A stretch of 64,000 nucleotides of DNA from positions 124,001 through 188,000 of the forward strand of contig JBDRRP010000107.1 of assembly GCA_043825735.1 (NCBI GenBank), written 5' to 3'. The notes under the pieces are model-generated. The model saw nothing but the letters and a program-made list of their open reading frames with translations. It did not search any database and was not told the origin of the DNA. Below, piece after piece: positions 41,152-44,701 of the stretch. The stretch's first letter is position 1, and each line of letters opens with the position of its first letter. Position numbers and translations under genes: made by a program. The stretch comes from Pseudomonadota bacterium. GTDB taxonomy: Bacteria; Desulfobacterota; Desulfobacteria; Desulfobacterales; JBDRRP01.

Positions 41152-42021
41152 ATGAGAATCTGGCTGGTCATATTGACACTGTTTTCACTGGTGGCGGCCG
41201 CCGCGCCGTCAGACGCCTATTTCGAGTCTCCGTCATTGAATCTCTTTCAGGTCGTCTACAAGGCCGGCGGCGTTGAAGTGGTTACGGATCTGGGTGCTAT
41301 CAAAAACGCTCAGGGCGATACCGCATTGCAGCCCGGGCAGACGCTGGCGCCTTCGGCGGGGGTATCGCACCTGGCGTTCAGTGCCTTCGGAACGGAAACC
41401 GCCTGGGGTGACCTTCGGGTCGCCTATTTTGGGACCGATGCCGACAACTTCACCTGGTTTGCCACTGCCAGCGCAGACAAGCCCGATTTTAAAGGCAGCA
41501 GCGAAGAGTTCGGATACGCTAATTTCTCCTTTTCAAATTACTATAAAGCCCAATCCGCATCCCAGGGAACCAATCCAGTGACCGGGCAATCCGATTACTT
41601 CCATGACCCGAATCCCGAGTTGGCGATGATCCCGGCGCTCCACCGGTCATTGATGCACACCGCCTATAATATCGGTATGAATCATGCTTACGACAGCGCA
41701 ACCGGAGACTGGTCGGCATTGCCGGACGCAGGCACCTTTGCCGGACTTCTTGCGGGACCGGTCGGAGAAGTCGACCTGTCGGATATGGCCGCCTTCGGGT
41801 ACGTGGACATGTATCTCTGGAGCGCCGAAGATCTTGCCGCGCCCTACGGCGTCCTGCGATTGACAGATAACGGTGAGACGGCGCTGATGACCTATATCGC
41901 GCCGACGACGCCGATACCCATCCCCGCCAGCATCGTTCTTCTCGGCAGCGGCATTGCCGGGGTCGTCGCCGCAAGAAGAAAAAGAAATCGAAATTCTGAC
42001 GAGCGGCTCATTGAGCGATAA
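41152..42021 (+). CDS. Exosortase-target surface protein (IPIPA tail), paralogue of 42438
   Basis: AGGAG RBS, signal peptide, IPIPASIVLLGSGIAGVVAARRKR; shares AYF, DLG, GYVD motifs with next gene. Confidence 0.9.
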   Translation: MRIWLVILTLFSLVAAAAPSDAYFESPSLNLFQVVYKAGGVEVVTDLGAIKNAQGDTALQPGQTLAPSAGVSHLAFSAFGTETAWGDLRVAYFGTDADNFTWFATASADKPDFKGSSEEFGYANFSFSNYYKAQSASQGTNPVTGQSDYFHDPNPELAMIPALHRSLMHTAYNIGMNHAYDSATGDWSALPDAGTFAGLLAGPVGEVDLSDMAAFGYVDMYLWSAEDLAAPYGVLRLTDNGETALMTYIAPTTPIPIPASIVLLGSGIAGVVAARRKRNRNSDERLIER

Positions 42022-42171
42022 CGAAAAGGCGGTAGTATTCAATAAAACAGTTCATCGGCAAGCGCGAACAAGTTTCCTTAAACAAGAGACGGCGGCATCG
42101 AAGGGAGGTGGTAGAAAGCAATCCGGGTTTACGAGGTTAAGCAGCAATCAACCATCAGAATAAATGATTCT

Positions 42172-42396
42172 TCCTCCAGAAAAAGCCAAACCCGCCGTGA
42201 GGCGGGGACGGAAAGCGACGGGTCTTGAACCCACCCACCTTCGCGGCAGCAGACGGTGCAGACTGGCACAGGGTCTCTCGATAGAGATCCACGAAAGTAG
42301 CAGCAAAGAAAAGACAACCAGGGATCGACCATACCAGTACTGCCGGAAGCGACAACGCGAAGCGATGATGGACAAGACAGCCGGGCTGCCTGGGAG
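42172..42396 (+). promoter_or_regulatory. c-di-GMP-I (GEMM-I) riboswitch with large P3 insertion
   Basis: gccAAAcccgcc-GTGA-ggcggg-GACGGAAAG-cgacgggtcttg ... caagacagccgggctgcc; P1 ctccag/ctgggag. Confidence 0.85.
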
Positions 42397-42437
42397 ACTA
42401 CTCGCAACACCACATTAATGAACTGGAGGAGAATTCG

Positions 42438-43196
42438 ATGAAACGCATGATGAGCATATTGTTGGCGGCATTTCTGATTTTCGCCGTCGCAGGGCCGGCA
42501 GCGGCCTACTTCGATGACCTGCACCTGATCCGCAGCATTTACACCAATGCCGGAACAACTGAAATCGGCTCAGACTTGGGTGCGGATGTCTCCACACTCA
42601 CCCTGGCCAACCCGCTCAACGATTTCCGCGGCGACCTGATCGCCCTCAGCGCTTTTGACGGCGGCGATCTGGCTGTTGGCTACTGGGCACACGCGCAAGC
42701 CAATACTGATTTTTATGCCACAGGCCTTGTGGGCGGCACCCTGACAATGTACGGCCGCAAGCAGTCGGCGGCCGACGGTGTCATGAACGCCACGCAGGCG
42801 CTTTATGCAGCTGAAAATGCTACCACAGCAACCATCATCAAACCGGACCTCGGTTCGTACTTCAATAAGTTTGAAGTAAATGGCAATAACCTCGGGTCTA
42901 TGGGTAGCATCCTTAGCACTCCGATCATGACGGCGAGCTTGGCTGATCTGGCGACCGTTGGCTATGTCGATCAGGCGCTGTACTTCTTCGATTACAATGG
43001 CAGCTCAAGCGCCAAAAACGGTATTGAAGTGGCGACTATCCGCACTTTCCTGACCTTCGACGGTACTACCATGGACCTTGCCGGCGACAAGATCGCCACC
43101 GTGATTAATCCTTCGGCCGTTCCGGTTCCTGCCGCGGTGTGGCTGCTGGGCTCCGGTCTTCTGGGCCTCATCGGCATCCGCCGCCGCAACGCCTAA
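42438..43196 (+). CDS. Exosortase-target surface protein (VPVPA tail)
   Basis: GGAGG RBS, signal peptide, VPVPAAVWLLGSGLLGLIGIRRRNA. Confidence 0.93.
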   Translation: MKRMMSILLAAFLIFAVAGPAAAYFDDLHLIRSIYTNAGTTEIGSDLGADVSTLTLANPLNDFRGDLIALSAFDGGDLAVGYWAHAQANTDFYATGLVGGTLTMYGRKQSAADGVMNATQALYAAENATTATIIKPDLGSYFNKFEVNGNNLGSMGSILSTPIMTASLADLATVGYVDQALYFFDYNGSSSAKNGIEVATIRTFLTFDGTTMDLAGDKIATVINPSAVPVPAAVWLLGSGLLGLIGIRRRNA

Positions 43197-43203
43197 CGGT
43201 GTG

Positions 43204-43251
43204 GCGCTCTAAACGCTCTTAACGATCAAAACGCTCTAAACGAACCAAACG
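43204..43251 (+). repeat. 9-bp-unit tandem repeat (AACGCTCTA/AACGAACCA)
   Basis: Related to the array at 62129-62223. Confidence 0.7.
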
Positions 43252-43270
43252 AAAAAAGGGGAGATACATC

Positions 43271-44701
43271 ATGTTGAAGAAAATGTTCAAAGGCATCCTG
43301 ATGGGCGGCGCCCTTCTGGCGCTGACCGTCCCGGCCGCTCAGGCGGCTGATGTCAACATCAACCTCTACGGCGCCTCTGCCCAGCACCTGTTCTGGAACG
43401 ATGCTGCCGACGACTTCCTGGCTTCCCAGTCCTGCACCGGCATTGCCCAAGACGAGTATAACAGCAAACACGGCATCACCCGCGGTACCTGTGGCGCCGA
43501 CAATGTTTACATCCGTTATTCCTCCAAGGCTTCTTTCGACGGCATCTATGCGGTCAAGGGTGCTGTCAACACAGACAGCTGTACGACTGCTTTCCAGCGC
43601 AAAATGGTCGACGAAGCCTCCTGCACGGACTGGGTGCTGGGCGGAACCGCCTGCAGTGCGCTCAAATGCCAGGATGTGACAGTCGGCGCCTCCGACGTAG
43701 CCGGCGACAGTTTCCTGCAGAGCAGTGCGGGACAACTCAAAGGACCCAATGGCGGGGGTTACATCACCCGTTCTTTTCCGGCCACCGGCGTGGATACCTC
43801 CGGCTTAATCGCGAGGCAGCCGGTTGTCGTTCCCTTCGGCTTTTTTGCCAACAACACCGTCAACAAGACCAAGTGCATCGGTCCTGATCCGCTCACCCCG
43901 ACCCCGGCCGCCCACAAGGCCGTTTCCACCTGGGGTTATCAGTGCTACGACCCGGATGAGGACGGCAAGTCCGAAGACTGCATCGGCTTCTACAAGTGTG
44001 TCGGCGGTACCTGCTCCGGCGGTGTGAACTCCGGCAATGCCTGCACCCAGGCCAACCAGTGCCCGGATGTGGCCCTTGAAAACACTAACTGCCAGCGCAT
44101 ACCGTTGGACAACATCAGCCGCATCATGGCAGTCAACATCTTCTCAGGACAGGCTTGGTACTGGACGGACTTCGGCGCCTGGTACAACAGCGACCCCATC
44201 GTTGCCTGCCTTCGCCATGCCGGCTCCGGCACACATTCCACCCTTGACTGGGCAGTCATGAGAAGCGCCGCCGGCGACTGGGGCTGGCCCTTGGTGACAG
44301 AAGAAAGTGCCGCTGACCCGACGGTGTGGTTCAACGACGGTTCCTCCGACGAAATGAAGTGCATCAACACGCTGGCCGGCGCCATCGGTTACGCCGATGC
44401 CGATCAGCTCGAAGGCAAATCCAACTACGAGAACGTCCACGCCTTGAAGTACAACGGCATCGAGCCCCGCCGGACCAAGGTCCGCAACGGCGAGTACGAC
44501 TTCTACTCCAATCAGTGGCTCTACTTCAACCACACTCCGACGGTTTTTGAAGAAGCACTGGTCTCGTTCGCTTCCGATCCGGCAAAAATTCCCGCGTCCA
44601 AGGCCAAGTTCTGGGCGGCCAGCGGCGAAATGGTGTACAACAAAAGCAACGACCGCGTTTATCCGGGGTATATCGGCGCTGGCCTTCCGCAGCTGCCGTA
44701 A
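43271..44701 (+). CDS. Secreted Cys-rich PstS/DING-like periplasmic-binding-fold protein
   Basis: Signal peptide; YGASA, GASDV, RHAGSGT, AIGYAD, NGEYDF in PstS order; 16 Cys. Confidence 0.8.
   Translation: MLKKMFKGILMGGALLALTVPAAQAADVNINLYGASAQHLFWNDAADDFLASQSCTGIAQDEYNSKHGITRGTCGADNVYIRYSSKASFDGIYAVKGAVNTDSCTTAFQRKMVDEASCTDWVLGGTACSALKCQDVTVGASDVAGDSFLQSSAGQLKGPNGGGYITRSFPATGVDTSGLIARQPVVVPFGFFANNTVNKTKCIGPDPLTPTPAAHKAVSTWGYQCYDPDEDGKSEDCIGFYKCVGGTCSGGVNSGNACTQANQCPDVALENTNCQRIPLDNISRIMAVNIFSGQAWYWTDFGAWYNSDPIVACLRHAGSGTHSTLDWAVMRSAAGDWGWPLVTEESAADPTVWFNDGSSDEMKCINTLAGAIGYADADQLEGKSNYENVHALKYNGIEPRRTKVRNGEYDFYSNQWLYFNHTPTVFEEALVSFASDPAKIPASKAKFWAASGEMVYNKSNDRVYPGYIGAGLPQLP

Follow-up and report, generated by a model that had tools for sequence, protein, structure and literature searches.

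In class I c-di-GMP riboswitches (GEMM-I), according to the sections of PMC6140456 used here, G20 reads one guanine of c-di-GMP and C92 pairs with the other, while in cGAMP riboswitches an A replaces G20; a picomolar KD is quoted for Vc2 in the same source. Length variation is touched upon in the corresponding excerpt of the 2007 GEMM paper, which speaks of 'variable-length stems of P2' (PMC1950547). No description of P3 inserts of more than 100 nt was found in the c-di-GMP-I/GEMM literature searched. The locus described here lies in a window of 64,000 nucleotides, the whole stretch of DNA that was analysed, in which the original prediction had placed a c-di-GMP-I aptamer with both halves intact and a structured insert of about 145 nt in P3. 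The alignment to RF03167, the sequence itself and the minimum free energy (MFE) fold agree with this description. Taken together, the locus is probably a normal class I aptamer which carries an orphan expansion at the P3 tip and exerts translational ON control over a VPLPA/PEP-CTERM gene.

The class I aptamer (GEMM-I) occupies positions 42176-42394 of the + strand and is 219 nt long, with a 5' half at 42176-42227 and the matching 3' half, beyond the insert, at 42373-42394; as read from the sequence, gggtcttg (42220-42227) and caagacagccgggctgcc (from 42373) are separated by a gap of 145 nt. When cmscan was run with permissive filters on 42100-42480, RF03167, whose model includes P1, aligned end to end over 42176-42394 (51.9 bits, E 1.5e-11, below the cut-off of 59), leaving 148 nt unaligned in the P3 loop; the full-length alignment was obtained with RF03167 only, and permissive filters were needed for it. 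In this alignment P1 is CCAG/CUGG and the P2 base CC/GG, the sole non-standard pair being G42217-G42384 in P3. The P1-P2-P3 junction, with a GNRA-capped P2 of 2 bp plus 6 bp, is that of c-di-GMP-I, and so is the 5' regulatory position before a gene of envelope/extracellular function. In addition, the MFE structure of 42165-42445 (-93.4 kcal/mol, z -3.94, with no equally stable sequence in 200 shuffles) contains the long-range P3 pairing GGGUCUUG/CAAGAC as well as an insert with its own helices, and a degenerate pattern of the two halves, 139-169 nt apart, matched once in the window and in none of 100 shuffles. Since an 8057-nt Logan contig (run X1) spans 41900-42700 and is identical to the window throughout, the insert is not an assembly join; the contig was assembled independently, yet X1 may be the source of the window, so that the check is not fully independent. 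The features of the locus are collected in Table 1.

Table 1. Features of the riboswitch locus in window coordinates
Feature	Position	Strand	Basis or remark
Anti-Shine-Dalgarno tract GAUUCUUCCUCCAG	42166..42179	+	last 4 nt CCAG 42176-42179 = P1 5' strand
G20-equivalent ligand-contacting G	42185	+	RF03167 alignment position 10, directly 5' of 2-bp P2 base
P2	42186..42211	+	cmscan alignments, MFE
P2 2-bp base	C86-G11, C87-G10	+	followed by AAA internal loop
P2 6-bp stem CCCGCC/GGCGGG	42191-42196/42201-42206	+	GUGA (GNRA) tetraloop 42197-42200
AAA linker (A47-equivalent 42212) and P3 5' strand	42212..42227	+	sequence, cmscan, MFE
P3 5' strand with 3-bp extension UUG	A42214-C42224, UUG 42225-42227	+	
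Insert at P3 tip, 145 nt	42228..42372	+	imperfect helical P3 extension, 8-bp hairpin, A-rich stretch
Pseudo-3' half inside insert	42245..42263	+	closes 'short' aptamer in default Rfam scan
True P3 3' strand CAAGAC-AG-CCGGGCU	42373-42387	+	cmscan; GC junction to 42389, C92-equivalent 42389
P1 3' strand CUGG	42390..42393	+	SD-region CUGG competes for CCAG 42176-42179
Ribosome site CUGGAGGAGAAUUCG then AUG	42423..42440	+	SD GGAGG 42425-42429, start codon 42438-42440
Regulated gene, 252-aa secreted VPLPA-CTERM (PEP-CTERM-type) protein	42438..43196	+	TIGR03370, Pfam

As regards the ligand pocket, alignment to the model consensus places G42185, A42212 and C42389 at the equivalents of the ligand-contacting G20, A47 and C92 (Vc2 numbering). 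Because of these three bases the binding site is, to judge from its sequence, of the standard c-di-GMP type and not of the cGAMP pattern. The original prediction had likewise taken the G at the G20-equivalent position as favouring c-di-GMP over cGAMP, and G42185, A42212 and C42389 bear this out when set against the part of PMC6140456 used for the comparison. To count as the 'GGC' variant represented by RF03167, a sequence should have a G where A47 would stand and reach 59 bits, and the window has an A there and 51.9 bits; the GEMM-Ib cGAMP type is recognized by an A at the G20-equivalent, and the window has G at 42185.

The gene behind the aptamer carries a VPLPA-CTERM sorting signal (TIGR03370, 28.7 bits, NCBIfam cut-off 25.35), while the Pfam PEP-CTERM match stays under its cut-off (18.8 versus 20.7 bits); there is also a weak, sub-threshold similarity to the flocculation protein PepA, and the N-terminus, judged by eye from the translation, is signal-peptide-like. 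An upstream paralogue (41152-42021, +) has a VPLPA-CTERM domain too and shares the N-terminal motif AYF..L..(V/I)Y; no riboswitch core was found before it. Near-full-length homologues of the 252-aa gene were detected at 12 loci among 401 genomes of the order, and in nine of the 12 a c-di-GMP-I aptamer lies directly upstream, with lengths of 80, 82, 83, 86, 88, 91, 122 (L054), 149 (L046, the closest homologue, 58% identity) and 175 nt (L052); upstream of the other three no aptamer core was found. Together with the window there are thus ten riboswitch leaders, with aptamers of 80-219 nt, four of which have enlarged P3 tips (inserts of about 48, 75, 100 and 145 nt), their P3 arms being at least 40 nt longer than the rest. 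In the riboswitch-less homologues (L050, L051, L055), GGAGGTGAT recurs about 110-150 nt before the start (around 1370-1400), directly after the preceding terminator; this shared motif may be the start of a small ORF or another leader element.

The homologous leaders also bear on the question of which 3' half closes the aptamer. A default Rfam scan of the whole window returned RF01051 as the sole family, with 43.4 bits against a curated gathering score of 35, but on a short alignment (42175-42263) closed by a segment within the insert. The expectation that covariance searches might miss the switch on account of the insert was therefore right only in part: the full-length RF03167 match does lie under the cut-off, with permissive filters needed to see it, while the default scan finds the locus above threshold, though with a wrong 3' boundary. 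Searched alone, the insert matches no Rfam family at E<=10, those of clan CL00126 included. Under RF03167 the short form, in which five pairs are non-standard (three in P1 and two in P3), reaches 49.4 bits, and the long form 51.9 bits despite the penalty for a 148-nt insertion; Rfam scores alone barely decide between the two. With a model built from six short homologous leaders (R1), complete short leaders score 84-93 bits, L054 75.2 and the short form of the window 44.7, which is what the bare 5' half of L046 reaches (44.9 bits), so that the pseudo-3' half adds nothing; R1 alignments of the window, L046 and L052 extend over the 5' parts only, the inserts being left unbridged, and alignment A3 was left out of the pair counts. 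Moreover, the distal 3' half GCCGGGCUGCCUGGG is letter-for-letter identical to that of the homologous leader L049 and ends 43 nt before the AUG (28-56 nt in the ten leaders), where the short form would end 174 nt from it, and forcing the short P3 gives -75.2 kcal/mol instead of the -93.4 kcal/mol of the MFE, a cost of about 18 kcal/mol. These findings identify the distal 3' half as the genuine one. The segment 42245-42263 is judged a chance resemblance, and the truncated Rfam call is due to its closing the model.

The expression platform can be read from the sequence flanking the aptamer. The CCUCC of the anti-Shine-Dalgarno (anti-SD) tract overlaps the P1 5' strand and finds its complement in the CUGGAGG of the ribosome site; a perfect 8-nt inverted repeat joins TCCTCCAG (42172-42179) and CTGGAGGA (42423-42430), the latter with the SD inside. 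The duplex of GAUUCUUCCUCCAG with CUGGAGGAGAAUUC has an energy of -18.1 kcal/mol, reached by none of 1000 shuffles, and is paired in the MFE, with a predicted unpaired probability of at most 0.03 for 42426-42432 in the absence of ligand. In seven of the ten leaders the anti-SD/SD duplex is equalled by at most 5% of 1000 shuffles, complementarity above shuffles being absent in L052, L048 and L047. A pyrimidine anti-SD abutting P1 recurs among the leaders and its flanks co-vary (UUGACCUCCA/UGGAGGUCAA in L054, ACUCCUUU/AAAGGAGU in L053). No terminator-like site was found on the + strand between aptamer and gene, nor a sigma-70-like promoter in the scan of 41900-43400. The single terminator-like site of that scan is the reverse complement of P2 (42206-42191, -), where the A-rich 5' junction gives the T-run, which may be a general property of the antisense of this aptamer. 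No RNA run was found to include the stretch. Contigs from two metatranscriptome runs and from X2 match 42175-42228 only; they are riboswitches of other organisms and have no bearing on expression.

The sequence data show the aptamer, where the insert sits, that it is not conserved, and that the two tracts are complementary in most homologous leaders; ligand binding and the direction of the switch we infer. CCAG belongs to P1 and to the anti-SD alike, and two CUGG copies therefore compete for it. Without ligand, GAUUCUUCCUCCAG (42166-42179) would pair with CUGGAGGAGAAUUC and bury the Shine-Dalgarno sequence; once c-di-GMP is bound, the closer CUGG (42390-42393) would keep CCAG (42176-42179) in P1, leaving a shorter and weaker masking helix, and translation would go up. 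On the folding models a translational ON switch is likely. The fold with a masked SD and an open P1 is predicted at -93.4 kcal/mol; forcing P1 raises this to -83.2, and freeing the SD as well raises it to -76.8. The gap of about 10 kcal/mol could be paid by ligand binding in the picomolar-to-nanomolar range. With P1 forced, a 9-bp remnant of the masking helix is predicted which covers three of the five SD bases, and induction may therefore be leaky or partial here. The insert would be mostly self-paired, lengthening P3 away from the ligand pocket, and should take no part in the exchange, since P3 and insert are folded in both predicted states.

An OFF-type or non-translational switch, with ligand-bound P1 stacking on the 9-bp anti-SD helix and the ribosome site closed, is considered unlikely. 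In the model with P1 forced, GAUUCU.CCU stays paired with AGGAGAAU(U/C), as such a switch would have it, and the portion of bioRxiv 10.1101/617340 used here describes Vc2 of Vibrio cholerae as an off-switch which sequesters the ribosome-binding site. Nevertheless, CCAG is unable to pair with both CUGG copies, so that forming P1 can only make the masking helix shorter, its net energy going from -16.6 to -6.4 kcal/mol, and the leaders L046, L049 and L070 keep only about 3 nt of anti-SD outside P1. Furthermore, matrix and surface proteins are in general among the functions that c-di-GMP turns on, which also speaks against an OFF switch before such a gene.

The translational ON switch leaves the insert itself to be considered. 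Its size is 145-148 nt, depending on whether it is delimited from the sequence or from the cmscan alignment. The MFE shows an 8-bp hairpin at 42271-42290 followed by an A-rich, mostly unpaired stretch (about 42291-42333), conspicuous against the 55-60% G+C of the surroundings; an excess of A over T on the + strand extends across 41950-42450, with an AT skew of up to 0.58. Among the stems proposed at the outset, ttcgcg/cgcgaa and the tctctcgatagaga hairpin (within the 8-bp stem) are found in the MFE, whereas ggcag/ctgcc is not, ctgcc pairing instead with the GCAGACUGG segment. Folded alone, the insert reaches -41.5 kcal/mol (z -2.17, with 4 of 200 shuffles as stable), and its reverse complement (z -1.84) does about as well as the + strand. 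In its own 6.8-Mb genome no further copy was found by blastn, the five matches being the insert itself and four segments of 15-20 nt (E 0.46-3; best non-self match 19 nt, E 0.46), unlike a MITE or repeat element, which would have further genomic copies. It is absent from 60 relatives, where blastn of 42150-42460 matched only query positions 16-81, i.e. the conserved 5' half, and a protein-anchored search of metagenome contigs with P0001 yielded no relative. No second aptamer core was found in the insert, the core pattern occurring once in the 64-kb window at 0 mismatches, so that a tandem or nested c-di-GMP riboswitch is not at hand; Tandem Repeats Finder reported no tandem repeats. The other c-di-GMP-I matches of the same genome (E <= 3.5e-6) are 80-97 nt long.

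Two further explanations were tried and rejected. For an internal duplication, the insert was compared with the true 3' half, with the 5' half and with the 3' half plus platform, and the best local alignments were at shuffle level (reached by fractions of 0.18, 0.40 and 0.50 of 1000 dinucleotide shuffles, respectively), and a 15-nt direct repeat (42308/42371) was taken as chance given these values. For a coding explanation, the overlapping ORFs 42164-42418 (+) and 42129-42524 (-) had no Pfam match at E<=1.

Long P3 arms have also been sought elsewhere. The two-half pattern with a gap of 139-169 nt was run on 185,579 species genomes and on JGI metagenome contigs, giving 12 and 18 loci respectively, of which 24 were submitted to cmscan and all 30 to a regex check. 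Twelve proved to be tandem riboswitches, two short single matches and 15 single aptamers of 196-220 nt, the remaining locus (L088) being on the same 60,454-nt contig as L086. The single long aptamers form several unrelated groups: two from Methylococcaceae, five of Desulfobacterales type, six with two hairpins and two singletons (L096, L101). None of the 30 loci contains a homologue of the insert (best blastn E-value 1.6).

The two-hairpin family (L086:597-812(-), L089:295-505, L090:295-514, L093:295-514, L094:256-453 and L104:176-377; one Deltaproteobacteria MAG plus metagenome contigs) has a conserved domain of about 135 nt in the P3 5' strand, between GCCACG and CACGGGUCC, downstream of which come a normal short P3 hairpin and then an intrinsic terminator; in the fold of its alignment A1, three of the 52 predicted pairs show compensatory changes. 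An AU-rich P3-tip family (L078:597-806(-), L084:595-804, L095:84-293(-), L100:295-495 and L103:295-496) has an insert of about 150 nt conserved on five contigs of Desulfobacterales type, and its 3' half GCCGGGUUGCC is able to pair with GGCAAUUCGGC further downstream, behind which a U-run lies, an arrangement that resembles a transcriptional platform. In the two Methylococcaceae loci (L077:597-799(-) and L083:595-810) the P3 tip is a near-perfect long hairpin, with -84 to -94 kcal/mol per aptamer, which looks like a palindromic element.

Gap classes of 46-76 and 139-169 nt were scanned. The shorter class gave 40 matches in 21 of 301 genomes of the order, about 10 of which come from normal aptamers behind which the 3' motif occurs once more. 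This second GCYRGRYYGCC copy, 20-45 nt behind aptamers of normal length, may be part of the expression platform (genomes G132, G244, G295, G210, G243, G174, G264, G298 and G086; loci L111-L113, L117 and L120-L124). The best 150 of 426 c-di-GMP-I matches in 151 genomes of the order measure 73-116 nt. Medium P3 arms are thus common in some genomes, and those near 150 nt, though rare, recur.

In the light of these searches, the insert looks like a lineage-specific, non-conserved expansion of the P3 tip that is tolerated locally, and we infer that it is functionally neutral or merely stabilizes P3. The second sensing or protein-binding domain suggested by the original prediction is not supported: the insert has no Rfam match, is single-copy and absent in 60 relatives, and folds with a z of only -2.17, while the homologous leaders lack an insert or have unrelated ones, of 48-100 nt. 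The four long arms showed neither pairwise similarity nor a common motif above shuffles. Since they differ in length as well as in sequence, they constitute evidence against a conserved second domain. Such a pattern of unrelated sequences is what would be expected of a permissive loop gaining and losing sequence, although the recurrence of long arms in four of ten leaders could also reflect selection for a long arm.

One proposal, which concerns origin only, is that the insert derives from a small palindromic mobile element, now decayed, or from a local duplication, tolerated in the P3 loop. Its imperfect inverted arms around a non-pairing centre and the similar folding of both strands (z -2.17 and -1.84) fit with it, as do the near-perfect long hairpins at the same place in L077 and L083. 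It is nonetheless rather unlikely, because there is no second copy in the genome (best match 19 nt, E 0.46) and none in 60 relatives, no tandem repeat was detected, and similarity to the aptamer halves is at the level of 0.18-0.50 of 1000 shuffles.

More doubtful is a functional accessory module, whether a platform for Hfq/S1-type or other proteins on the A-rich loop, a second sensor, or a folding timer in which the 5' end of the insert, CCUUCGCGGC (42238-42247), would transiently unfold P2 until the remaining insert is transcribed. The enlarged P3 arms in four of ten homologous leaders all have A-rich unpaired stretches; when transcripts are cut off at 42250-42280 and at 42330, their predicted MFE structures replace P2 by a pairing of 42194-42202 with 42239-42247; and large P3 domains are conserved in other lineages, for example in families A and B. 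Nevertheless, the four long arms are conserved neither in sequence nor in length, no homologue appeared in any search, no Rfam family was matched, and the z of -2.17 is modest; of the three other long arms, two belong to leaders rich in A+T, in which A-rich stretches are to be expected, and the pairing against P2 is predicted from truncated RNAs and lacks comparative support. In a broader form, the P3 arm would be a recurrent docking site for accessory RNA domains, the window insert being one of them and tuning the switch, which we hold to be quite improbable. If true, tuning could proceed by locking of P3, by delayed folding through P2 pairing or by showing an A-rich loop to a protein, and the long P3 arms in four of ten leaders of this surface-protein gene family would find an explanation. 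Finally, a reading in which the short form 42175-42263 does the work, or competes as a decoy, while the distal 3' half is left over as a relic is highly improbable: the short form has 43.4 bits with RF01051 (gathering score 35), 49.4 bits with RF03167 and a CUGG at 42262-42265, behind the pseudo half, able to close P1, but against it stand the five non-standard pairs, the lack of any gain under R1, the penalty of about 18 kcal/mol, the 174 nt to the AUG (28-56 nt in the leaders, read to the distal 3' half) and a distal 3' half which is the same GCCGGGCUGCCUGGG as in L049.

A normal aptamer with a locally tolerated expansion has consequences for annotation, since a standard Rfam scan gives a wrong, truncated aptamer here and leaves the true, full-length one under threshold; aptamers with a long P3 are under-called or mis-delimited. 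Together with some 15 unrelated aptamers, each about 200 nt long, from public genomes and metagenomes, the window indicates that the P3 arm tolerates inserts of 140-165 nt, and the locus offers a natural test of P3-tip tolerance. Structurally, the locus is a variant within a familiar riboswitch class, and its P3 is an extreme case of a region already known to vary. Furthermore, the leader family provides a clean and testable translational ON platform, as predicted, with the anti-SD overlapping P1, and would tie c-di-GMP directly to surface proteins of the exosortase type (VPLPA/PEP-CTERM). If the insert were functional, it would represent an accessory domain on a second-messenger riboswitch, which current evidence makes unlikely.

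In comparison with the aptamers of about 200 nt found elsewhere, the window has in common with them a single core, 140-165 nt between the halves and, for most of them, an insert in or on P3; none resembles the window insert in sequence (best blastn E-value 1.6). Families A and B are conserved over several contigs and have terminators behind them, whereas the window insert is an orphan combined with a translational platform; in family A, moreover, the extra domain sits in the P3 5' strand, and in the window at the P3 tip. The c-di-GMP-I-GGC variant RF03167 is the best-scoring model for the full-length alignment of the window, but its consensus reads GACGC-G-AA where the window reads GACGG-A-AA, with an A where the variant has G; the name 'GGC' is taken here to refer to these three variant positions. 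The GEMM-Ib 3',3'-cGAMP riboswitches of Geobacter (e.g. Gs1761) are alike in fold and in belonging to deltaproteobacterial-type genomes, and differ in having an A at the G20 position (PMC6140456, sections used) in place of the G42185 of the window. With the RF01051 riboswitches, Vc2 and Vc1 of Vibrio cholerae among them, the window shares the three-helix junction, the GNRA-capped P2, the AAA linker and the G/A/C ligand bases, as well as a place in the 5' leader of a gene of extracellular or surface function, as far as the excerpts of PMC1950547 and PMC6140456 describe it; the difference lies in the roughly 145 extra nucleotides of the window P3. The P2 tetraloop of the window is GUGA, and the 11-nt GAAA receptor is therefore not expected. 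As for regulation, Vc2 is reported to be an off-switch (bioRxiv 10.1101/617340, in the part used), in contrast with the window, where the anti-SD overlapping the P1 5' strand predicts ON, and Vc1 is reported to activate expression (PMC4744006).
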